Below are positions 1 to 13,518 of a stretch of 64,000 bases of DNA, in pieces. The notes below the pieces were generated by a model that did no database searches, was not told where the DNA came from, and saw only the letters and a list, made by a program, of their open reading frames with translations. Each line of letters opens with the position of its first letter. Position 1 is the first letter of the stretch. Position numbers and translations under genes: made by a program. Source of the DNA: a virus; IMG/VR virus record IMGVR_UViG_3300035034_000207, positions 5,879-69,878 of that record, one strand, 5' to 3'.

Positions 1-132
1 CCTACAAAAAGAAAGTCATTAACATTATACGTAACTCATGGGATTTTCTCAAAGGGTACCGATATTCTAAAAGAAGCTGGGTATGATAACGTTTCATGTT
101 ATAATGATATGCGGAAGGATAATATATTATGA
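1..132 (+). CDS. 3' end of ribose-phosphate pyrophosphokinase (Prs/Adps-like), truncated by window edge
   Basis: Frame 1 reads PTKRKSLTLYVTHGIFSKGTDILKEAGYDNV...NIL*; LYVTHGIFSKG is the C-terminal motif of PRPP-synthetase-family proteins. Not in the supplied ORF track. Confidence 0.7.
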   Translation, partial: PTKRKSLTLYVTHGIFSKGTDILKEAGYDNVSCYNDMRKDNIL

Positions 133-2778: not shown

Positions 2779-3153
2779 TTGACAACAAAACCAAACACCT
2801 CATTCTGGGGATTTCACATGATGTTGGACGTTCTAAAATGCAAAGAACATTCTGGGTATACCAACCCATATATTCTAAAACAATGGGTTCAGACTCTAGT
2901 TAAAGAAATTGATATGGTTCCACATGGTGATCCACAGATTGTTCATTTTGGTGATGGGGATTTGGCAGGCTGGACAGTAATTCAATTAATCACAACGTCT
3001 AATATCATGGCTCATTTTAATGACGTAGACGGTTCAGCGTATATAGATGTATTTTCGTGTAAACCGTTTGATTCTAACGTCGTTCTAGACCATTTCAATA
3101 AGATTTTTGAGCCAGAGTCTATCAGAACAACTTTCTTGACTAGACAAGCATAA
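2779..3153 (+). CDS. speD: S-adenosylmethionine decarboxylase-family pyruvoyl proenzyme
   Basis: WGFHMMLD N-terminus, ITTSNIMAHF self-cleavage region, YIDVFSCKPFD motif. Confidence 0.8.
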   Translation: MTTKPNTSFWGFHMMLDVLKCKEHSGYTNPYILKQWVQTLVKEIDMVPHGDPQIVHFGDGDLAGWTVIQLITTSNIMAHFNDVDGSAYIDVFSCKPFDSNVVLDHFNKIFEPESIRTTFLTRQA

Positions 3154-3300: not shown

Positions 3301-4128
3301 TTACTGGAAAAAACCCATTGCTGGATATTCGTATTCTTTACGTAGCTGTTCTTCTAATCTAACGATCTCAGCCTCTGCACGTTCTAGAATATCATCGCCC
3401 CTCATTTGAACACCACCGATCATAGTAACACCACGATACTTTGAAAGGTTCTTACCCCAATTGCGTTCTATTAGAGCAACAGTGTATTCTTGAAGCCATC
3501 TATTACCCCAGATGTTATCTACAGATTCCATAGAGTCTTCTGTTGGATCTAACTTTCTAAAACATTTGACAACAACTCCGCCCCACGCGTTTCTGGTGTG
3601 TTTTAAACCGCCTGCGATATACAATCTCTTTGTAATATGGTTAAAGTCGTACGTTAATTCTGGGTTAAAGAAATAGTTAAGAAGAGCAATATTGGACATT
3701 GTTATATAATAGTTTAACATGTCTGCAGCTGGATAACCGTGTTTAAATATACCTTGAATGTATGATGCAAATTCCATAGATCCGCCGGCTATACCAACAG
3801 CTGGTCTAAACACATCAACAACACCTTCTACATCATCAGGTAGCTGGATATAAGTTCTCTCAGTGTCTGTGTCAGATGTGTAAACTGGTTCTCCATTTGA
3901 ATCAACTATGATCTCGCCATTAGAATCTAGCATCTGTTCTGGTGATGTAATGGTGTGTAAAAGAAATGTTAACTCTGTGGCATGGGCGTGGCGTTCGTAG
4001 AACCTATACAAAGCGTCGTCTATTCTATCGTCTATTTGCGACGTGTGTACATCTACCTTTATAACTGGTGACCCTAGTTCACGCAGACAACGGTCTTTAA
4101 ATTCTTCTCTATTTTTTGGTATACTCAT
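3301..4128 (-). CDS. 13: neck protein gp13
   Basis: R.LG.PVI.V....QIDDRIDDAL N-terminus; WL.EY..ALI..NWGKNLSKY.GV.MIGGV C-terminus. Confidence 0.9.
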   Translation of the reverse strand: MSIPKNREEFKDRCLRELGSPVIKVDVHTSQIDDRIDDALYRFYERHAHATELTFLLHTITSPEQMLDSNGEIIVDSNGEPVYTSDTDTERTYIQLPDDVEGVVDVFRPAVGIAGGSMEFASYIQGIFKHGYPAADMLNYYITMSNIALLNYFFNPELTYDFNHITKRLYIAGGLKHTRNAWGGVVVKCFRKLDPTEDSMESVDNIWGNRWLQEYTVALIERNWGKNLSKYRGVTMIGGVQMRGDDILERAEAEIVRLEEQLRKEYEYPAMGFFQ

Positions 4129-4133
4129 GTAAT

Positions 4134-4141
4134 TATTTATA
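4134..4141 (-). promoter_or_regulatory. T4-type late promoter
   Basis: TATAAATA on the minus strand just upstream of gene 13. Confidence 0.75.
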
Positions 4142-4150
4142 CATTTTATT

Positions 4151-4180
4151 GTTTACATCTTTACTAAAATATTGTATTAT
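4151..4180 (+). promoter_or_regulatory. early promoter feeding the DNA-modification operon
   Basis: GTTTACA-17 nt-TATTAT; followed by tightly packed + strand ORFs to 12526. Confidence 0.75.
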
Positions 4181-4219
4181 AGTTATATTGAAATTAATAA
4201 AAATGTTGAGGGATATACA

Positions 4220-4432
4220 ATGATAACAGAACAAATACACATCAACGAAATTAAAAACACTCGTAACATTAAAGTTGAACATAAACAATATTTTAATGAC
4301 GCTTGGGAAACGTATAGAAGTTATGTTATTTCACCGGATGATCATGATTACGATAAAGACATGAAAGCTGTAAGCAACGATTCAGAAAAGGATAATGTTC
4401 AGCTTTATTTCAACGGCCACCTTGCAAAGTAA
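4220..4432 (+). CDS. hypothetical early protein
   Basis: ATG at 4220 behind GAGGG RBS. Confidence 0.65.
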   Translation: MITEQIHINEIKNTRNIKVEHKQYFNDAWETYRSYVISPDDHDYDKDMKAVSNDSEKDNVQLYFNGHLAK

Positions 4433-4438
4433 TAGAAT

Positions 4439-4708
4439 ATGATAACACTTCCACCACAATTTATAGAGCATAAATACCCAGGGTACTTCTTCAATGTTAT
4501 AGATAATAGATTATATTCTATAAAGATAGATGGTATATTAAAACCTCTAAGATCTTATAGTTTGTTTTTTGTTAATAATAAACCAGTTAAAATAAAACAC
4601 TATCAAATATCGCATAAGGGTAAACGAAAGCATGTTACTTTAGATTCCTTAATGCTATTGAAAATGAAACACCCATCACGCCACGAAATTCCTGTTAAGA
4701 AAGAATAA
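4439..4708 (+). CDS. hypothetical basic protein
   Basis: 89-aa ORF, 2 nt before the kinase gene. Confidence 0.7.
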   Translation: MITLPPQFIEHKYPGYFFNVIDNRLYSIKIDGILKPLRSYSLFFVNNKPVKIKHYQISHKGKRKHVTLDSLMLLKMKHPSRHEIPVKKE

Positions 4709-4710
4709 TA

Positions 4711-5253
4711 ATGATCATATTAGTAGAGGGCTTGGACAGATGTTTCAAGTCTGGATCTGTTGAATACTTAAGAAGCAAAATTAAAAACCCTAAAATTCTA
4801 AATACGCATTGTGGTAAACCTCCTAAAGGTGTTAACGACTTTGGGTGGTCACTTGAATACTATAAGTTCTGGTTTAAAAACTTAGAACAAGTACATTCAA
4901 GTGGTGGCACAGTTATTTCAGATAGATCGCATCTTGGCGAATCAGTATATGCAGACTTATATAGAAATTACTCTGGTTTATATGTATATGACTTAGAGAA
5001 ATTATATGTTACAACAGATTGGTATTTACTATTGCTAACTGATGATGTTTGTGATATAATAGCTAGAGATGATGGGAAATCAATCGAAAACAATGCCAGT
5101 CAAATGCAAGCAACAAAAGAAAAATTCATATCGTCATTTAATAAATCACGTATACCAAATAAGTTACATATTGATTATGCTAGAGACGACATAACACTAG
5201 AAACACTACCAAGCGTTTTAGATAGATTTTTTGAATTAGAAGAAAGAGATTAA
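4711..5253 (+). CDS. thymidylate-kinase-like dNMP kinase (putative modified-dCMP kinase)
   Basis: MIILVEGLDRCFKS P-loop-like motif and DRSHLGESVY motif. Confidence 0.8.
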   Translation: MIILVEGLDRCFKSGSVEYLRSKIKNPKILNTHCGKPPKGVNDFGWSLEYYKFWFKNLEQVHSSGGTVISDRSHLGESVYADLYRNYSGLYVYDLEKLYVTTDWYLLLLTDDVCDIIARDDGKSIENNASQMQATKEKFISSFNKSRIPNKLHIDYARDDITLETLPSVLDRFFELEERD

Positions 5254-5258
5254 TAACG

Positions 5259-5912
5259 ATGTATAATACAGTAAAAGATATTCGCGAAGCCTTTAAACTA
5301 AAATTGAGTCGCGAAGAATTTGTAATTGATAAGACTGGTGTTAAAACAATTGAAATCGTTGGTAGTAGTTTTATCGCAGATGAACCGACTATTTTTGGTG
5401 AAGTAAACGAAGGCTACGTTAAGCGTGAATTGGAATGGTATGAAAGTCGTTCTCTTAAAGTTGCAGATATCCCTGGAAAAACTCCTAAAATCTGGGAAGA
5501 TGTTTCTTCAAAACAACATGGCGAAATTAATTCCAATTATGGATATCTTATTTGGTCACCAGAGAATCATAATCAATATCTAGAAGTTCTTGGCGAATTG
5601 TCTAGAAATAAAGATTCACGAAGAGCTATCATGATTTACACTAGACCAACAATGCATCTTGATTATTGTCGTGATGGTATGTCTGACTTTATATGTACCA
5701 ACACGGTTCAATATCTAATCCGTGATAATAAACTAAATTGTGTAGTAAATATGAGAAGCAATGATTGTATTTTTGGATTTGCTAATGATTACGCATGGCA
5801 AAAGCATGTTCTTGATAAGTTAGCAGATGATCTAGATATTGCAACTGGCGAAATTCTATGGCAGACCGGTTCTTTACATGTTTATGAAAGACACTTTAAC
5901 TTAGTTAAGTAA
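5259..5912 (+). CDS. 42: dCMP hydroxymethylase (thymidylate synthase family, T4 gp42-like)
   Basis: DKTGVKTIEI, RELEWY, GEINSNYG, DGMSDFICTNTVQYLIRD, MRSND..FGF.NDYAWQ, GSLHVY.RHF match recalled T4 gp42; Asp of NDYAW is the dCMP-specificity position. Confidence 0.93.
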   Translation: MYNTVKDIREAFKLKLSREEFVIDKTGVKTIEIVGSSFIADEPTIFGEVNEGYVKRELEWYESRSLKVADIPGKTPKIWEDVSSKQHGEINSNYGYLIWSPENHNQYLEVLGELSRNKDSRRAIMIYTRPTMHLDYCRDGMSDFICTNTVQYLIRDNKLNCVVNMRSNDCIFGFANDYAWQKHVLDKLADDLDIATGEILWQTGSLHVYERHFNLVK

Positions 5913-5919
5913 TACGCAT

Positions 5920-6270
5920 ATGAAATTAGACAATATAGATACGTTAGTAGTTGACGTTGATGGGACTCTTTGTTATATTGAGCCAGATGGAAACTATTCA
6001 ACAGTAAAACCAATACAAAACGTTATAGATAAAGTTAATGAATGTTTTAACTCTGGTAAATATATCATATTATTTACTGCGAGGGGTATGAGAACCTTTA
6101 AGGGTAACGTTCATGAAATTGATAAACATCATAGACCTATATTAACTAAATGGTTAATTGATAATGGTGTTAAATATCACGAATTGCACTTTGGTAAACC
6201 GTGGAATAGAAGAACGGCGTATCTAGATGATAATGCCTTAACAATAGAAATGTTTTTAGAAAATGAATAA
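5920..6270 (+). CDS. HAD-family (capsule-biosynthesis type) sugar phosphatase
   Basis: DVDGTL, FTARG, YHELHFGKP, YLDD motifs. Confidence 0.85.
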   Translation: MKLDNIDTLVVDVDGTLCYIEPDGNYSTVKPIQNVIDKVNECFNSGKYIILFTARGMRTFKGNVHEIDKHHRPILTKWLIDNGVKYHELHFGKPWNRRTAYLDDNALTIEMFLENE

Positions 6271-7786
6271 AACTTTATACATTATACCAGCAGCTGGTCA
6301 AGCAACCAGATTAAGACCGATTTCAAACAGATCATCCAAGTGTATGGTTCCTGTTAACGGTAAACCAATAATTTCATACATCATTGATAAAATAGATCTT
6401 GATACATCAGATGTTATTATTGTGCATGGCGATAATACAGACGTTGTTTCATATTGCGAAAAGAAATACGGATATTTAAAAATATCATTTGCTAGACAAA
6501 CCAAGACACAAGGACCTCTACACGCTGTTTATTGTGGTTTACAAAAAGTAAACGATCTTAATAATTACGATAAAGTTATTATTTGGCTAGGTGATACTAT
6601 CGTAGATAGCGAAGATGATATTTCTGATGATCATTCTTTAGTTGTTTCAGTTAAGGATTGGCAGAGATGGTGTTTTATGGATTTCGATGGTAAACTTTAT
6701 GATAAGCCTGAAAAACAACCACCAACAGATTTAGCTCTTATAGGTGTATACTGTTTTTCAGATTACAAAAGATTTAAAGAAGTCACAGATGAAATATGTG
6801 AAAGATCTTTCATGTTAAATGGTGAATACCAAATTTCTCAGTTATTAGAACGAATGGGTAACAGACCACAAGTAATTCTATCCAGCGAATGGTATGACTG
6901 TGGTGATTTACCATCATTATATGATTCATCCGCTAGAATTCTAAAGAAACGAGCGTGTAGACCAGGATCTTCTGTTTCAATTGATACGATTAGCGGAACG
7001 TTTACTAAAGCGGGGAAACGATGTGAAAATGAAGTATATTGGTATAATAATGTTCCAGATAAAGTAAAACCGTTTATACCAAATGTATATAAAACAGATG
7101 ATCTATCTTATACAATGGAATTACTACCTTCTGTTACTGTTGCAGATATGTTAGTCTTTGAAGATATGCCTGAAGATTCAATAAGATACATTATCAATAG
7201 ATGTTTAGATACATATAGATTAGCGTTCAACACTCATGATAAGTATAAGAATGATTCTGAAGGAATGTTCTTTACTAAAAACTTTGAACGTGTTACAAAG
7301 TATAAAAAGCTTGATATTCATCAGCAAGAGATCAATGAGTACCTTCGGTATACTCAGAAGATGCAACAAAAGTATTCTAGTAAATTAAATGGCGAAACTT
7401 CATGCGTGCATGGCGACTATCATCTTGGTAATATAATGTTCTCTCCTGAAACTGGCAGAGTTAAGATGATTGATCCTCGTGGTAACTGGGGTCTATTCCC
7501 GACTATTCATGGAAATTATTATTACGATTTCGTGAAGTTTATGCAATCTATCTATGGTGAATATATATGGCTGTACCCAACTATGGATACAAATATTAAT
7601 GTTCGTGATATTTGTATGGATGAAGCTGGCAAATGGTTTGGTAAAAATAACTTTGATTTTGAAATGATTTGTGATCTTGTCCCAATTATTATGGGTTCAT
7701 GTCTAGAATTTCACGACGATTCAAAAACCAGGCAAGATATGATATGGGATAAAACACTACAAATTATAAGAAACAAAAATGTATAA
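6263..7786 (+). CDS. sugar nucleotidyltransferase fused to APH/choline-kinase-like domain
   Basis: N-terminal IIPAAGQATRLRP..K.M.PVNGKP and WLGD; C-terminal HGDYHLGN and MIDPRG kinase motifs. Confidence 0.87.
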   Translation: MNKTLYIIPAAGQATRLRPISNRSSKCMVPVNGKPIISYIIDKIDLDTSDVIIVHGDNTDVVSYCEKKYGYLKISFARQTKTQGPLHAVYCGLQKVNDLNNYDKVIIWLGDTIVDSEDDISDDHSLVVSVKDWQRWCFMDFDGKLYDKPEKQPPTDLALIGVYCFSDYKRFKEVTDEICERSFMLNGEYQISQLLERMGNRPQVILSSEWYDCGDLPSLYDSSARILKKRACRPGSSVSIDTISGTFTKAGKRCENEVYWYNNVPDKVKPFIPNVYKTDDLSYTMELLPSVTVADMLVFEDMPEDSIRYIINRCLDTYRLAFNTHDKYKNDSEGMFFTKNFERVTKYKKLDIHQQEINEYLRYTQKMQQKYSSKLNGETSCVHGDYHLGNIMFSPETGRVKMIDPRGNWGLFPTIHGNYYYDFVKFMQSIYGEYIWLYPTMDTNINVRDICMDEAGKWFGKNNFDFEMICDLVPIIMGSCLEFHDDSKTRQDMIWDKTLQIIRNKNV

Positions 7787-8879
7787 GAATTCGTTAATAT
7801 ATTCTACAAGATCTTTAACTGGTAAATTCGTTCAAAGCTTACTTCAGTGTATGAAAGTTGTTGAAACATGTTCTAACAATATAGATATATGTATGACTAC
7901 TAAAGAATTTTCTACAATAGATAAAATCAGAATAGAATCATGTTTACCAGATCTAAATCCTATTCACTTATACTTTGATTATTATTTTAAAGAAGTTAAT
8001 CCACATAAAGGATATTGGGAAGATATCTATAATGAAATAGATATCGAATGTTTTAAGAAATATGACGCTATCTTTATCTACGGCGGTATTCTATCTAGCG
8101 CTTCTAATATATTTCGTGGAACAAAAAGAACTATATTATTCCCAACAAACAATGATAGATTCCAGATCAACTTTGTGTCTGTTGGTATACATTTAACTCA
8201 CCTCTTAGGTTGTATTAAAGCATCTAAAGAATTGGGCATACCTTTATACGAAATTGTCTACGATACACAAGAAGCTTCTATTGGTGATTTTCATTCTGAT
8301 TATGTTCCAGAAAAATATCAGAAGATTCATAACTATGATATTGAAGATTATAAGATGAAACGCGTTGATATGTTACAATATTTTTATGACACTGAAGATC
8401 ATATGTTTTTTGAAGGCGAAACAGATCTATCACAGAAGATATATGATTTTACGTTTGGATACACTATTATAACTAAAAACAGAGCAGAAGCTCAGGATTC
8501 ATATGATAATATTTTTAGTAAATTTAAGAAGACTAATATATTTGCTCATAATAAACTAGAAAAGACATCCAATTTTGTTGACAGAGATACGTATCTTAGA
8601 TATATTAAACATTCGAAATACACGTTAGTAATACCTCCGTATGATAAGAAATCTATTTCAGTGTTTAGAATCATAGAATCTATAAAGAATAATTGTATAC
8701 CACTTATTCACCCAGATTGTACTATTTCTGACATTGAAAAGTCATATGATGTAAGTTTCAATGATTTAATTATTGATGATAGTTGGGAAGTATTCTCAGA
8801 TAGTAAATACGCTAAAGTATTGGAATACCTTAAAGATAAATTTTTACCATTTAGAATTGGATTTGATAAAATAACATGA
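7779..8879 (+). CDS. GT-B glycosyltransferase, resembling the RB69-type arabinosyltransferase (Aat-like)
   Basis: YLRYIKHSKYTLVIPPYD...VFRIIESI...CIPL donor-binding region; family assignment from recalled similarity only. Confidence 0.65.
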   Translation: MYKNSLIYSTRSLTGKFVQSLLQCMKVVETCSNNIDICMTTKEFSTIDKIRIESCLPDLNPIHLYFDYYFKEVNPHKGYWEDIYNEIDIECFKKYDAIFIYGGILSSASNIFRGTKRTILFPTNNDRFQINFVSVGIHLTHLLGCIKASKELGIPLYEIVYDTQEASIGDFHSDYVPEKYQKIHNYDIEDYKMKRVDMLQYFYDTEDHMFFEGETDLSQKIYDFTFGYTIITKNRAEAQDSYDNIFSKFKKTNIFAHNKLEKTSNFVDRDTYLRYIKHSKYTLVIPPYDKKSISVFRIIESIKNNCIPLIHPDCTISDIEKSYDVSFNDLIIDDSWEVFSDSKYAKVLEYLKDKFLPFRIGFDKIT

Positions 8880-10105
8880 AACATATAGCCTTCGCAAAAA
8901 TTGGTAAATCTATTAAGTTTAAGACAGCGTTCTCTCCTATTGGCGGCGATAACGAGCCAGGATCTATGTTAAGAATTCTTGCTAACAATAATCCAGATAA
9001 AACTTTCTATTTAATTGGTAAGTCAGATTTTAGGAAACTATCATATGATGATCGCATTACGTTATTTCCATATGATAATGTAGTTGATGTTCTAACTGGG
9101 TATAAAAACGAAAACCGTGATTATCTAAAGAATAAGCTTGCTTCTATGAATATAACTATTGACTATTCTATTTTCATGATTGGTCAGATCGGTACTGTTA
9201 CTATTCCAAATAGAATTGAACAAATTAAGGACAGATCGCTAACTGCTTCAGTAATTGAGATGACCTTAGGATATTCTACACCAATTATTGAATGGATAAA
9301 TTCTGAGAAGGTTCCATTCATTGAAATAGTTAACGATCCTAGATATACTTTAGCTCAAAGCCGGGATATAATTGAAAACCCAGTTAAGACTCTGTCTCAG
9401 TTTACAGGAACATATGAGAAGAAGACAATACGATCATACGAAGACCAGACACGAGAGAACCACACTATAAATACTAAGTACGCTGAAATGGAAAAGATCT
9501 TTCTTTATGATAGAAAATTCCCAATTAATATTGATAAAAATACTAATTTTGTAATGATTCTAAACGAAGGACACCCTTCAAGATTCCAACAAGTTAAAGA
9601 ATGGATCCTAGATAATATTGAACATGCCAATATCTATGGCAAATGGGAACATCCTTTATCTTTACCTTACAATAATTTTAAAGGTACAATACAAATTGAA
9701 CATGCACAAAGACTATTGACAAGTGTGAAGTATACGTTTATAATACCAATATTAAAAGGTTGGGCTACATCAAAATATATTGAAATGATTCAAGCAGGCG
9801 TTATACCATTCTTTCATCCTGACTACGCCAGCGAAGTTCCTGAAGTATTAAAAAGAATACCAGAGTTTCTAATATGTAAGAAGCCTGAAGATCTTGGTAA
9901 AAAAATTAAATTCTTAAATGATAGTGATGAACTACGTGAAAAGATTTTGGCACTACTACAAAAAGAATTTCTAACAGATGATATGTATGATGGGACTAAA
10001 CTAAATGATATTGTAATGTCTTCTATTAATAGCGATTATGTACAAGTTAATAAAGGTGATTATAAGAAACTAGAAACAAACTTATTAGATGGGTTATTTA
10101 AATAA
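8876..10105 (+). CDS. DNA beta-glucosyltransferase-like GT-B enzyme
   Basis: NDPRY.LAQS (T4 BGT TDIRLPFSQS, catalytic Asp), PVKTLSQ, FKGTI, TSKYIEM, SDELREKIL are colinear with recalled T4 BGT segments. Confidence 0.75.
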   Translation: MKHIAFAKIGKSIKFKTAFSPIGGDNEPGSMLRILANNNPDKTFYLIGKSDFRKLSYDDRITLFPYDNVVDVLTGYKNENRDYLKNKLASMNITIDYSIFMIGQIGTVTIPNRIEQIKDRSLTASVIEMTLGYSTPIIEWINSEKVPFIEIVNDPRYTLAQSRDIIENPVKTLSQFTGTYEKKTIRSYEDQTRENHTINTKYAEMEKIFLYDRKFPINIDKNTNFVMILNEGHPSRFQQVKEWILDNIEHANIYGKWEHPLSLPYNNFKGTIQIEHAQRLLTSVKYTFIIPILKGWATSKYIEMIQAGVIPFFHPDYASEVPEVLKRIPEFLICKKPEDLGKKIKFLNDSDELREKILALLQKEFLTDDMYDGTKLNDIVMSSINSDYVQVNKGDYKKLETNLLDGLFK

Positions 10106-10106
10106 T

Positions 10107-11363
10107 ATGAAAAGTACTAAAGATATAACATGGTCTGCATTGATTCCTCTTATTGGAGGATTTCCGTTAGGTGCTGAAGCTGAGCTAAATAAACCACCCG
10201 AGCAAATAATTGGTTACGGTTTTCCGCATGATAATCAATACATACACTATCAGGAAGAAGTTCTTGGAAGGAAAATGGATAAGGTTGTTCTAAATGAAGA
10301 AGGTGTTGTTATATCAGGTAATGCTCTAAAACATGTTAATATTATTGTAGCAACACCTCCATGTTCGGCTTTGTCATCTTTAAATTGTGGTAAATGCAAT
10401 TCTGTTAAAGGCGCGACCGCGGAATCTACAAAGTGGATGGATTATGCTCTACGCGAATCGTTGGGAACAATCAAATGTGATGTTTTCATGTTAGAAAATG
10501 CGCCAGCACTTGCTTCTAATAAAGGGGCTGAAATGGCGAAAAGATTATCTGAGACAGCTAATCAATATGGTTATTCGTCTGGTTATTATAAAACAAGTAC
10601 AAAACACCATGGTATACCACAAAACAGACAACGAACGTTCTTTTTTGCGTGGAAATCTGATAGAGCTCCAGAACTGCCATGGGTTCGTAAACCTAGAGAA
10701 AACTTTAAGACGTTTCTAGAAAATATACCTAGCGATCTAACACAACAAGATCTTATCATAAACACGAAAGTAACATCTGAACCATATTATATATACATGA
10801 AAGATAAACTTAATCTTGATGTTAGATCGGCAATGATAGAATCAGGATTAAAGACAACGTTACAATATGTTATGAAACGCGATGATATTGAAAAGGCGTT
10901 AGCTTATTTTAACGAAACAAATAACGAACTTGGTATTAAACTAGCCAGTCATGTAATTAAAAAGAAAGCTATGGGTCTTGGTGTTTGGGATGGATCTGTT
11001 CATGTTTTTGACGATACTATGAATGCGCTGATTGGTAGAAACATGAATGATACAATTCACCCAAGTCATGATAGATCGTTGAATGTTCGTGAAGCGCTTT
11101 GTCTGATGGGCTTTCCTGAAGACTTTGAACTACAAGGTGGTCTGAAGAATACAAACATGATAGCTCAGAACGTTCCTGCTTGTACTGCAGCCGACATGGT
11201 CATGTTTGCTTGTATGTTTATTAACAGAGAACTTCAAACGTCAAATTCAAATGTTATTTTCCAGAATAATGAAAACAAAAAACATTTACCTGTTACGTTT
11301 AAAAGCGATATAATAGCGGTCGATGAATTAGCTTCTCCCATGGAAGAATTATTTACAAAATAG
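10107..11363 (+). CDS. C5-cytosine DNA methyltransferase-fold protein with atypical cofactor motifs
   Basis: Motif IV TPPC, VI LENAP, VIII PQNRQR, IX RSLNVREALCLMGFPEDF intact; motif I is IPLIGG and motif X is IAQNVP. Confidence 0.85.
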   Translation: MKSTKDITWSALIPLIGGFPLGAEAELNKPPEQIIGYGFPHDNQYIHYQEEVLGRKMDKVVLNEEGVVISGNALKHVNIIVATPPCSALSSLNCGKCNSVKGATAESTKWMDYALRESLGTIKCDVFMLENAPALASNKGAEMAKRLSETANQYGYSSGYYKTSTKHHGIPQNRQRTFFFAWKSDRAPELPWVRKPRENFKTFLENIPSDLTQQDLIINTKVTSEPYYIYMKDKLNLDVRSAMIESGLKTTLQYVMKRDDIEKALAYFNETNNELGIKLASHVIKKKAMGLGVWDGSVHVFDDTMNALIGRNMNDTIHPSHDRSLNVREALCLMGFPEDFELQGGLKNTNMIAQNVPACTAADMVMFACMFINRELQTSNSNVIFQNNENKKHLPVTFKSDIIAVDELASPMEELFTK

Positions 11364-11377
11364 AAAGAAATAAAAAT

Positions 11378-11905
11378 ATGTCAGAATTTAATGAATGTGC
11401 AGATCTTCTAAAAGAAGATGATGTTTCTAAATTTAAAACTCTATATAAAACAATGTTAGATAAGGGTGTTAATCCACTTGACGAAATGTTTAAGATGCAA
11501 AACTCTCTACAAGAAGCTCTTGGTTCTAAGTTTCCTGAACGTTGTAAACCACCAAAAGCTATACAAACAAAAGGAGAACTAACAGATTTTCTAAAAGATC
11601 AAAAATCCGCTATTGATGATGAGTTTCGTGAATTGTTTGAAGCAGTTGTTGGTATGTCTAGAGATTCATCTATTCGATCTGCAAACTGGAAGAAATGGAA
11701 ATCTAAATACGATGATATTAGATCAGAGAAAACAAATGAAAACTTAACAAGTAACGACGTAGCCGAACGTTCATTTGAAGCTATTGACATTTTCCATTTT
11801 GTTATTAATTTATACCTTGGCTTAGACATTGACGCTGAGATGTTATTTGTCATGTATTGTATTAAAAATAAAGAGAATTTTGATAGACAAGACAGAGGAT
11901 ACTAA
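11378..11905 (+). CDS. 56: dCTP/dUTP pyrophosphatase (T4 gp56-like)
   Basis: FNECA.L N-terminus, IDDEFREL, WKKWK, FE.IDIFHF, KN..NF.RQD.GY. Confidence 0.92.
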   Translation: MSEFNECADLLKEDDVSKFKTLYKTMLDKGVNPLDEMFKMQNSLQEALGSKFPERCKPPKAIQTKGELTDFLKDQKSAIDDEFRELFEAVVGMSRDSSIRSANWKKWKSKYDDIRSEKTNENLTSNDVAERSFEAIDIFHFVINLYLGLDIDAEMLFVMYCIKNKENFDRQDRGY

Positions 11906-11908
11906 TAT

Positions 11909-12526
11909 ATGTCATATTCAGTCGGTGAAGACAACCTACTACAGAGTTCGTGCAATTATGTTGAACAAATAGACCACGACCTTAAGAAATATTCTCAGGG
12001 TAGAAATATATGCGACTATGTTGTTATACATTACACAGCGGGTGGGTCCAAAACTTCAGCCTTAAATAGTTTCAAAAATCCCAACACACAAGCGTCGTGG
12101 CACCTAACAATTGATAGAGAAGGCGGCGTGTCCCAGCTATATGATTTTAGAAAAATTGCATGGCATGCTGGAAGATCAGAATATATTCGTAGAGATTTGA
12201 TGAGAATAAATGGATTAAACAAATGGGCAATTGGTATTGAATTAATTGCTTGGGGTCAACTAACAAAAAAGAACGAAGTTTACTATTCGTGGGCAGGCAC
12301 AAAGGTTCCAGCTGAAGAAGTTTATATTGATTCGGCTGGCGTTCCGTTTCATACAATCACAGAAAAACAGATTAAAACATGCAGCGAAATAGTTCCAGCA
12401 TTGTTTAAGAAGTATAATTGTGTAGATGTTGTTGGTCACTGTGAAATATCACCAGGTAGAAAGACAGACCCAGCTGAACAAGGGATGAAAAGAATTGTGT
12501 TTCCACTAAGAAAACAGTTGACATAG
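11909..12526 (+). CDS. N-acetylmuramoyl-L-alanine amidase (Amidase_2), probable endolysin
   Basis: VIHYTA, ASWH, AWHAG.S, IGIE, GH..ISPGRK.DP motifs. Confidence 0.88.
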   Translation: MSYSVGEDNLLQSSCNYVEQIDHDLKKYSQGRNICDYVVIHYTAGGSKTSALNSFKNPNTQASWHLTIDREGGVSQLYDFRKIAWHAGRSEYIRRDLMRINGLNKWAIGIELIAWGQLTKKNEVYYSWAGTKVPAEEVYIDSAGVPFHTITEKQIKTCSEIVPALFKKYNCVDVVGHCEISPGRKTDPAEQGMKRIVFPLRKQLT

Positions 12527-12546
12527 TCTTGTAGATGTTGTATTAT
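12518..12546 (+). promoter_or_regulatory. early promoter
   Basis: TTGACA-17 nt-TATTAT. Confidence 0.75.
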
Positions 12547-12588
12547 ATCTAATTGAAATTAATAAACAATAAACTTGAGGAATATATC

Positions 12589-12678
12589 ATGGGTTATTAT
12601 ACAAATCACGAAGGCATTGCAACAGGATTCAAAGACCAAACAGAAGCTGAGTTTTTCGAATTTAAAGAGATTGTGTAA
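12589..12678 (+). CDS. 29-aa early peptide MGYYTNHEGIATGFKDQTEAEFFEFKEIV
   Basis: Directly behind the early promoter; RBS region TTGAGGAATATATCATG identical to that of the 2131 gene. Confidence 0.55.
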   Translation: MGYYTNHEGIATGFKDQTEAEFFEFKEIV

Positions 12679-12786
12679 TTTAAATGAGTATAGTAAGATG
12701 TGAACATTGCGATAGATATATTGACTTGGATTATATTGATTCATGTGATGACGACGATAACACAACATGTGCTATAAGCATATATA

Positions 12787-13518
12787 ATGGAAGCGTTAAT
12801 GAGACAAAATAAAATATTATTTCCAAGGATAGTTGATTATAGAATACTATTTGATGATAACACATTCCCAGATCTCCTTTGTGAAACTCTAGAAACTGGT
12901 AGAACATATCAGAATCCTAGTGGTAATAAATATCCATCTATAACAACTGTTCTCGGCCAATCTAAAACAGATGAAGACATGGCTGGTATTCAACGTTGGC
13001 GAGATTCTGTTGGTCATGAAGAAGCTGATAGAATCTTTAAAGAAGCTGGTAAACGCGGGACAGCTTTGCATGATCTGTGCGAGAATTTCATAAAGGATTA
13101 CAACAATTTTAAAGAACCTAAAAAACTTACACGAGACTATTATTTGTTCAAACAAGTTTATCCTTATTTGGAGCATGTTAATGATGTTCTAGGTATTGAG
13201 GCTGCCATGTATTCTAATACTTTAAAGGTAGCAGGTAAGACAGACTTAATAGCATCATATAAATCAACAAGATCTATCATAGACTTTAAGACATCTAGAA
13301 AACGTAAAGACTACTGGATGATACAAGACTACTTTATTCAAATGTGCGCGTATGGTTTGATGTATGCTGATATGTTTAAAGTTCCAATTACACAAGGCGT
13401 TATTCTAATGGCCATGGATGATAATAAACAAAGTCCTGGCGACGAATTCATAGTAGATTTACGTGATTATATTAAACCTCTTCTAGAAAGAGTTAGAGTG
13501 TTCTATGCCAAATACTGA
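12787..13518 (+). CDS. Cas4-like / PD-(D/E)XK exonuclease
   Basis: YPSITTVL, RGTALH..CE, AGKTD, IIDFKTS, YFIQMCAY motifs. Confidence 0.85.
   Translation: MEALMRQNKILFPRIVDYRILFDDNTFPDLLCETLETGRTYQNPSGNKYPSITTVLGQSKTDEDMAGIQRWRDSVGHEEADRIFKEAGKRGTALHDLCENFIKDYNNFKEPKKLTRDYYLFKQVYPYLEHVNDVLGIEAAMYSNTLKVAGKTDLIASYKSTRSIIDFKTSRKRKDYWMIQDYFIQMCAYGLMYADMFKVPITQGVILMAMDDNKQSPGDEFIVDLRDYIKPLLERVRVFYAKY

Follow-up and report, generated by a model that had tools for sequence, protein, structure and literature searches.

The closest described counterparts of the gene treated here are the bacterial type II cytosine C5-methyltransferases (C5-MTases; M.HhaI, M.HaeIII, Pfam PF00145), the phage carboxymethyltransferase CmoX, phage gene clusters that pair a C5-MTase with a TET/5mYOX enzyme, and the 5-hydroxymethylcytosine (5hmC) system of phage T4. 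The gene itself lies in the window, a 64,000-nucleotide stretch (positions 5,879 to 69,878) of the IMG/VR virus record IMGVR_UViG_3300035034_000207, and encodes a methyltransferase-like (MT-like) protein between a glycosyltransferase (GT) gene and a dCTPase gene. We found that this protein belongs to a phage-restricted clade in which the active site is intact, the signature of the S-adenosylmethionine (SAM, AdoMet) pocket is altered, and the gene is tied to pre-replicative 5hmC synthesis and to two GT families. The enzyme probably performs an undescribed step of phage DNA camouflage.

CmoX is the DNA cytosine C5-carboxymethyltransferase of Synechococcus phage S-B43 (PDB 8YF3). It contacts adenosine through Phe25, Glu47, Phe48 and Asp69, selects the transferred group with Arg350, and can use carboxy-SAM (Cx-SAM) made by the host; its product is a handle for hypermodification, and it travels with CmoA and an amide ligase (PMC12783734). 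In phage clusters that combine a C5-MTase, a TET/5mYOX enzyme and a GT, the methyltransferase makes 5-methylcytosine, which TET oxidises to 5hmC after replication (PMC8256090; bioRxiv 10.1101/2023.12.21.572611). For phage C5-MTase clades whose motif X is divergent, no methylation could be detected (Burke et al. 2021, PMC8256090).

The MT-like protein has the same fold as M.HhaI and M.HaeIII (Foldseek template modelling score (TM) by target, 0.66-0.70) and has in common with them the Cys of the PC motif, the Glu of ENV, QxRxR and motif IX, as well as a variable region that separates motif VIII from motif IX. Unlike these enzymes, its family differs in motifs I and X and appears to lack the motif II acid; the gene was not seen in any restriction-modification setting, and cellular genomes hold next to no members of the clade. 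With CmoX it shares a phage C5-MTase fold, a changed motif X residue and a similar (S/T)PPC motif (TPPC in the window protein). However, it has Gln354 for Arg350, Phe25, Glu47, Phe48 and Asp69 are not conserved in its family, and its partners are gp42 and GTs, with CmoA not found in six records. Judged by these residues and partners, the MT-like protein is not a CmoX. As in the TET/5mYOX clusters, a C5-MTase-family gene adjoins DNA GTs, but here 5hmC comes from gp42 before replication, and a search without a positive control gave no Tet_JBP match. Like the T4 5hmC system, the locus type has a gp42 homologue, a gp56 homologue and transferases that resemble beta-glucosyltransferase (BGT) or alpha-GT; unlike T4, the marine modules add a C5-MTase-fold partner and their own nucleoside diphosphate (NDP)-sugar supply genes.

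Without cofactor, C5-MTases in vitro reportedly replace the 5hmC hydroxyl with thiols or strip off the hydroxymethyl group (Liutkeviciute, Klimasauskas and co-workers). The reaction that we propose below would use the same chemistry, in which Cys addition at C6 frees the 5-hydroxymethyl group, although in those experiments they were side reactions of SAM enzymes. The literature searched holds no description of a natural enzyme dedicated to cofactor-free 5hmC chemistry, nor of a C5-MTase-like gene linked to a dCMP hydroxymethylase; supplements and Iyer et al. 2013 lay outside the scope of this search, and a prior mention is possible.

Fold and family-wide motifs of the MT-like protein

The open reading frame (ORF) of the MT-like gene starts at ATG 10107, with a single nucleotide between this ATG and the TAA of the upstream GT gene, and ends with TAG at 11361-11363. 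Translation could also begin at an in-frame ATG at 10089, but 10107 agrees with where homologues start.

An AlphaFold2 model of the protein, built on 125 relatives, reached a predicted local distance difference test score (pLDDT) of 94.7 and a predicted TM (pTM) of 0.91. Its best Foldseek matches are M.HaeIII, M.HhaI, DNMT1, MET1 and DIM2, with E values of 1e-13 to 1e-10 for HaeIII, HhaI and DNMT1 at the top and CmoX at rank 32. The C5-cytosine methyltransferase fold, which a first-pass annotation had assigned from the letters of the window, is thus confidently predicted. The N-terminal strand-helix order of the model is Rossmann-like, as usual for C5-MTases, and the variable region is mainly helical.

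The Pfam DNA_methylase profile (PF00145) matches with 75.8 bits (cut-off 22) but covers profile positions 55-299 of 324 alone, so the N-terminal SAM-binding part is unmatched, whereas canonical control C5-MTases score 200-360 bits across positions 1-324. In some family members the alignment extends to profile position 10. The NCBIfam profile TIGR00675 gives 68.2 bits, under its cut-off of 100.65. A direct sequence search of PDB chains returned M.HhaI as the best match (E 0.0017), and a profile of the N-terminal 105 residues found no methyltransferase in the PDB better than E = 1. The N-terminal 70 residues are not alignable by sequence to CmoX of phage S-B43 or to bacterial C5-MTases.

Motif positions were taken as translations of exact sub-ranges of the window, and the earlier reading of IPLIGG, PPC, ENAP, PQxRxR, motif IX and AQNVP proved right to the letter. 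A word-indexed search returned 253 related proteins, the closest of 51% identity, and an exhaustive search of 50%-identity representatives gave 228 relatives at E < 1e-30. Conservation was counted per column in a family alignment of 125 representatives of 27-50% identity. The catalytic motifs are intact across these relatives, as had been claimed for the window protein: C86, E130, R174 and R176 are each present in 125/125, and R323 and E329 of motif IX in 122/125 each. The altered positions are conserved too. In the motif I region, G17 is found in 125/125, G18 in 124/125, L15 in 122/125 and P14 in 118/125; A132 is kept in 124/125 and N355 in 118/125, and position 354 is Gln in 121/125, the remainder being three Lys and one Arg. 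Where strand 2 ends, 102/125 relatives have Ser at position 36, which is Gly in the window protein, and position 38 is acidic in just 18/125. The motif III column is variable, position 63 is mostly Asp or Asn, and D42 is acidic in 116/125.

The control set consisted of C5-MTases from 151 bacterial genomes of one class, 38 of them with a match; 30 loci were returned and 28 gave a usable ORF (L211 and L212 were dropped). These canonical enzymes carry F.G.G in 26/28, ENV in 28/28 and GN[AS][VIL] in 27/28, as against 5/125, 9/125 and 4/125 for the same patterns anywhere in the family sequences. The family-type patterns P[LQR].GG (115/125) and Q[NST].P (118/125) both occur in 0/28 controls. The change in motifs I and X noticed in the window protein is therefore a property of the family and is absent from the canonical set.

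We compared the family with 26 controls by global profile-profile alignment, excluding both controls without F.G.G, so that motif I is present in the control profile by construction. The alignment has a probability of 99.95%, with an N-terminal part of low confidence. In motif I, it pairs the canonical Phe with I13, the first Gly with L15 and the last two Gly with G17-G18; position 36 falls on the motif II acid and is followed by a six-residue family-specific insertion with F39, and Q354 falls on the Asn of GN. Against HaeIII, Q-N-V-P of the family profile pairs with N-A-V-P, and against CmoX of phage S-B43, Q354 pairs with Arg350. The family thus shows conserved replacements in the AdoMet pocket (Phe to Ile, first Gly to Leu, Asn to Gln-Asn, and Val to Ala in ENV), and apparently no conserved motif II acid.

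The roles of Phe18, Gly20, Glu40, Asp60, Val121 and Asn304 in HhaI inform what these replacements may mean for SAM. Going by those roles, ordinary SAM binding by the MT-like family is unlikely. The protein departs from the SAM-dependent family in two of the sequence features that define it, motifs I and X; whether it has a third, motif II, is doubtful. By analogy with the known enzymes, the changed residues would lie together between the cofactor site and C5 of the base that is flipped out, where the side chains near the base are smaller (Ala for Val; Ala or Ser for the Gln that follows the Cys) and would for that reason fit a C5-substituted cytosine. L15Q accompanies Q354K in two of the three Q354K relatives (P0179, P0258), which suggests that positions 15 and 354 line one pocket; covariation between motif I and motif X is possible on the alignment. 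Among all four relatives with Lys or Arg at 354 (P0179, P0258, P0236, P0156), Leu15 is replaced by Gln in two and by Arg in one.

The same data have to be weighed for an ordinary, divergent SAM-dependent C5-MTase, which would methylate cytosines that escape 5hmC, or would act where the dCTPase is absent, as a second protection layer. Such an enzyme would account for a PF00145 score above the cut-off, for alignments that reach profile position 10 in some members, for catalytic motifs that are all intact and for a Rossmann-like core predicted with high confidence. It fits poorly with the TIGR00675 score and with the conserved residues that stand in for Phe and the first Gly in motif I, for the acid in motif II and for Asn in motif X, all of which the 28 controls near-invariably keep. 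The phage clades with divergent motif X and no detectable methylation (PMC8256090) also argue against it. We regard ordinary methylation as unlikely, and return to it below with the genomic context.

In a FastTree phylogeny of 126 family members, 26 controls and CmoX, the family forms one clade (support 0.80) on a stem of 1.9 substitutions per site, the rooting of the tree being arbitrary. Longer fused forms of the MT-like protein were not found in our search, which is weak evidence. Among distant relatives, P0201 has 598 aa with a C-terminal CXXC zinc finger, and two other longer ones, P0171 and P0195, carry extra stretches without a Pfam match, one of ~350 and the other of ~1050 residues. 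For the C-terminal 1043 residues of P0171, the Atlas yielded no usable match.

Linkage to gp42 and glycosyltransferases

The record that holds the window is 69,878 bases long and rated 40% complete. Its DNA polymerase is T4-like (38% identity to cyanomyophage polymerases), and a genuine ThyA gene lies upstream of the window. The MT-like gene shares one gene string with a gp42-type dCMP hydroxymethylase (E 2e-92 to the T4 enzyme, PDB 1b49) and a gp56-type dCTPase, in keeping with the 5hmC context proposed at first sight, and the GT upstream and the gp56 homologue downstream are placed as described there (Table 1). Homology gives good grounds for calling this a 5hmC phage that has gp42 and gp56. 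The gp42 homologue retains RSND...ND like T4, and a D169N rule separates 5hm-dCMP from 5-hydroxy-dCMP synthases (Lee et al. 2026, PMC13326640), so its product should be 5hm-dCMP and not 5-hydroxy-dCMP. The gp56 homologue shows 40-45% identity to annotated dCTPases in 1398 phage records. For GTb, the GT directly upstream, the Atlas model has a TM of 0.64-0.75 to T4 beta-glucosyltransferase (PF09198) clusters.

Two samples of relatives were used to follow this arrangement. The first comprised 192 IMG/VR relatives found by family alignment, of which 80 loci were retained and searched with the window proteins. A BGT-like transferase homologue was identified in 76/80 loci. In 77/80 loci (68 GTb, 9 GTa) the end of a GT gene lies no more than 100 nt from the MT-like start, with a median gap of 5 nt; the upstream ORF often reaches 4 nt past the start, and in the examples listed it ends either 1 nt before or 4 nt past it. 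All 25 loci with 7 kb or more of upstream sequence contain gp42; contig ends account for the lower overall count of 42/80.

The second, independent sample was collected with a degenerate motif-X DNA pattern, which gave at least 119 matching stretches, and 80 listed loci were analysed; single distant relatives used as queries in the viral collection had given no matches. All 80 listed loci hold a family member, with a median identity of 29% to the window protein. A thymidylate synthase-family gene was found in 30 of the 80 listed loci. In 29 cases it is gp42-type and lies 1-5 kb upstream on the same strand, and the remaining one is ThyA-type and downstream. The gp42-type gene is present in 21/21 listed loci with at least 5.5 kb upstream and, the two samples joined, in 46/46 loci with enough flank. 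Neighbour families in this sample were assigned by scanning one representative per cluster. The BGT-like gene is rare in this branch (5/80 listed loci); a cluster homologous to the T4 alpha-glucosyltransferase (PF11440, 130 bits) occurs in 24 listed loci and a sugar epimerase in 20, and dCMP deaminase, UvsX, a gp41-like helicase and gp45 are further conserved neighbours. Genome maps of TIM5-like phages list a DNA alpha-GT (PMC10087341). Co-occurrence with gp42 and a GT, which the first-pass annotation had marked as worth following, therefore holds at every judgeable locus, the GT being BGT-like or alpha-GT-like by branch.

The cultured Pseudoalteromonas phage vB_Psh_XG4 carries the module in the order gp42, HAD, nucleotidylyltransferase-kinase, GTb, GTa, MT-like gene, gp56. 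Cyanophage S-TIM54 encodes a 32%-identical homologue of the MT-like protein. Its 'ThyA' gene (L003 6105-6947 (-)), three genes off and on the opposite strand to that homologue, encodes Asp at the position where thymidylate synthases carry the dUMP-specifying Asn. Since Asp specifies cytosine there, this is probably a dCMP-modifying enzyme and not a thymidylate synthase. Prokaryote genomes, taken as one per species for 185,579 species, yielded a single close relative, on a 3.4-kb contig of a metagenome-assembled genome, and the cluster of one relative is present on 93 contigs, Tara samples included. The clade is a fixed component of gp42-dependent 5hmC glycosylation modules in marine T4-like phages, and is essentially phage-only and monophyletic.

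This distribution bears on the ordinary methylase discussed above. gp42 and gp56 occur together both in this phage and in XG4, so little unmodified cytosine should remain as its substrate, and a clade found in one of the prokaryote species genomes is not what such an enzyme would lead us to expect.

The tight junction with a GT gene in 77/80 loci would also suit a protein that does not modify phage DNA at all and serves as a base-flipping accessory of the GT. A flipping scaffold would have no need of an invariant Cys86 (125/125), and the partner GT differs between branches, which is a poor fit to a specific complex. Complex prediction for the upstream GT and the MT-like protein scored 0.00, which speaks neither for nor against binding. 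Alternatively, a protein of this kind could make a cofactor-free attack on host DNA, by deamination or adducts. SAM-free C5-MTases deaminate cytosine, and where a phage has gp42 and gp56, unmodified cytosine sets host DNA apart from its own, but the gene lies within the modification module and not among host-shutoff genes. We consider either role very improbable.

A proposed reaction on 5hmC and the question of cofactor

Our preferred reading, to which we give a probability of roughly 0.4, is that the MT-like protein works after replication, taking 5hmC or its glycoside as substrate and doing without ordinary SAM, and that addition of Cys86 to C6 allows the 5-CH2-O-R group to be eliminated and replaced. 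Action after replication, on DNA that already contains 5hmC, would follow from the presence of both gp42 and gp56 in the phage. The enzyme would flip out 5hmC or its glycoside, Cys86 would attack C6 and Glu130 would protonate N3. In the enamine formed in this way, the 5-CH2-O-R substituent could be exchanged: its elimination would leave an exocyclic methylene, to which a nucleophile would add. The remodelled pocket (L15, A132, Q354 and N355) would hold the C5 substituent and the incoming group with no ordinary SAM, and cytosine at a subset of sites would end up carrying a further modification. More tentative, and to be read as doubtful, is the claim that a SAM-independent enzyme of C5-MTase fold swaps or extends the C5 side chain of 5hmC or its glycoside in DNA as an undescribed hypermodification of marine T4-like phages. 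Such an enzyme would be the cytosine counterpart of the thymidine hypermodification pathways based on 5-hydroxymethyluracil.

Other cofactors and oxidation routes were searched for in the genomes. A switch to carboxy-SAM had been suggested for the altered motif X. This found no support, as the CmoX signature Arg is Gln354 here and CmoA (TIGR00740) had no match in six records, namely the window's own (40% complete), two at 99% and 100%, one at 73%, and the complete genomes of XG4 and S-TIM54; the amide ligase was not searched for. We rejected the Cx-SAM route on the lack of CmoA in these records, and the decarboxylated SAM (dcSAM) route on the rarity of SAM decarboxylase (SpeD). A SpeD gene lies at 2779-3153 (+) of the window (PF02675, 52.3 bits), but SpeD was found in just 2/11 related records, the window's and that of S-TIM54, and in neither the 99%- nor the 100%-complete record. 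Tet_JBP (PF12851) had no match in the window record and five related records; the same search matched 0/14 control genomes and is thus without a positive control.

These results also bear on an alkylation of unmodified cytosine by a non-SAM donor, either as post-replicative hydroxymethylation that feeds the GTs or as transfer from Cx-SAM or dcSAM. Q354 stands at the group-selecting residue of CmoX (R350), which can use host-made Cx-SAM (PMC12783734), and 4/125 relatives have Lys or Arg there. The window encodes SpeD, and a relative without dCTPase would leave cytosine for conversion. However, position 354 lacks a positive charge in 121/125 relatives, the family does not keep the Phe, Glu-Phe and Asp with which CmoX binds adenosine, and the gene is accompanied by no CmoA in the six records searched and by SpeD in just 2/11. 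A folate-type binding signature was not identified in the protein, and we know of no precedent for folate-type binding in the C5-MTase fold. A non-SAM donor for unmodified cytosine is, in our judgement, distinctly improbable.

Several points weigh against a SAM-free enzyme acting on 5hmC. The loss of SAM binding is read from the sequence, while the Rossmann-like strand-helix order is kept, and D42 with the majority Asp or Asn at position 63 could still serve adenosine. The monophyly of the family has moderate support in the tree. No candidate gene that could supply the nucleophile is conserved beside the MT-like gene. T4, to our knowledge, has no C5-MTase-fold partner and glycosylates 5hmC without such an enzyme. 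Finally, two records rated 99% and 100% complete (G001 and G002, behind loci L005 and L072) carry gp42, a GT and the MT-like gene and are without a detectable gp56-type (phrog_173) or MazG-type dCTPase. Unmodified cytosine may persist in these phages and be the real substrate, which makes methylation of residual cytosine plausible there.

If the enzyme does act on 5hmC or use a non-SAM partner, it would represent a new reaction class for one of the best-studied enzyme folds, and a widespread group of ocean phages would have a modified base not known until now. It would also be a natural enzyme for site-selective 5hmC derivatisation, which for epigenome mapping has so far come from side reactions of engineered or cofactor-starved methyltransferases. 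In viromes, genes labelled 'DNA methylase' could then be sorted by P-L-x-G-G, ENA and Q-N-V-P versus F-x-G-x-G, ENV and G-N-A-V. If instead it is a plain methylase, the AdoMet signature of C5-MTases would be far more plastic than assumed. The family is large and abundant, and the cultured phage vB_Psh_XG4 carries the same module.

The modification module and its neighbours

The features of the MT-like gene and of the module around it are collected in Table 1.

Table 1. Coordinates, within the window, of the MT-like gene, its motifs and the genes of the surrounding modification module.
Feature	Position	Strand	Remarks
C5-MTase-fold gene with altered cofactor-pocket signature, member of the phage-only clade	10107..11363	+	418 aa
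Motif I variant IPLIGG, residues 13-18	10143..10160	+	I13 at canonical Phe, L15 at first Gly
Motif II region GYGFPHD	10212..10232	+	without acidic residue at the end of strand 2; low-confidence alignment
Family-specific insertion inside the motif II region	10212..10232	+	holds F39 and the N/H41-D42 pair
Motif IV PPC, residues 84-86, catalytic Cys86	10356..10364	+	Cys in 125/125
Motif VI ENAP, residues 130-133	10494..10505	+	Glu130 kept; canonical Val replaced by Ala
Motif VIII PQNRQR, residues 171-176	10617..10634	+	both Arg in 125/125
Motif IX RSLNVRE, residues 323-329	11073..11093	+	from translation and column counts
Motif X variant AQNVP, residues 353-357	11163..11177	+	Q354 at the Asn of HaeIII GN and at CmoX Arg350
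dNMP kinase-like, candidate gp1 analogue	4711..5253	+	weak match
gp42-type dCMP hydroxymethylase	5259..5912	+	E 2e-92 to the T4 enzyme, PDB 1b49
HAD phosphatase, capsule-biosynthesis phosphatase-like	5920..6270	+	
Sugar-1-phosphate nucleotidylyltransferase fused to APH-like kinase (NDP-sugar supply)	6263..7786	+	
GTa, second putative glycosyltransferase	7779..8879	+	weak GT47-like match; homologues in 10/80 loci
GTb, GT-B glycosyltransferase with T4 beta-glucosyltransferase-like predicted structure	8876..10105	+	
gp56-type dCTPase homologue	11378..11905	+	T-even gp56 homology

The NDP-sugar supply genes are shuffled among relatives (window 5920-7786 (+), L032 6337-8708, L005 6079-7573). Elsewhere, a ~345-aa protein combines an APH-like kinase region with an N-terminal match to the window HAD phosphatase and is followed by a separate cytidylyltransferase-like gene. 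This shuffling suggests that relatives differ in the activated sugars or polyol phosphates that they make.

A scan of positions 4000-13000 returned 54 promoters, versus 50.7 +/- 7.1 in shuffles, and 2 terminators, versus 2.7. A perfect sigma-70 consensus (TTGACA, 17 nt, TATAAT; 12/12) is present at 9716-9744 (+), within the 3' part of the GT gene and ~360 nt ahead of the MT-like ORF; taken together, promoter-like sites are no more frequent than in shuffles. An Amidase_2 (endolysin-type) gene at 11909-12526 (+) immediately follows the dCTPase gene, amid nucleotide-metabolism genes. Upstream of the window, the record encodes a cytidylyltransferase-like protein (G000:C1:1017-1565) and a ribose-phosphate pyrophosphokinase-like protein (G000:C1:5153-6010), the gene for the latter continuing into window positions 1-132; the two may be an NAD or nucleotide salvage pair.

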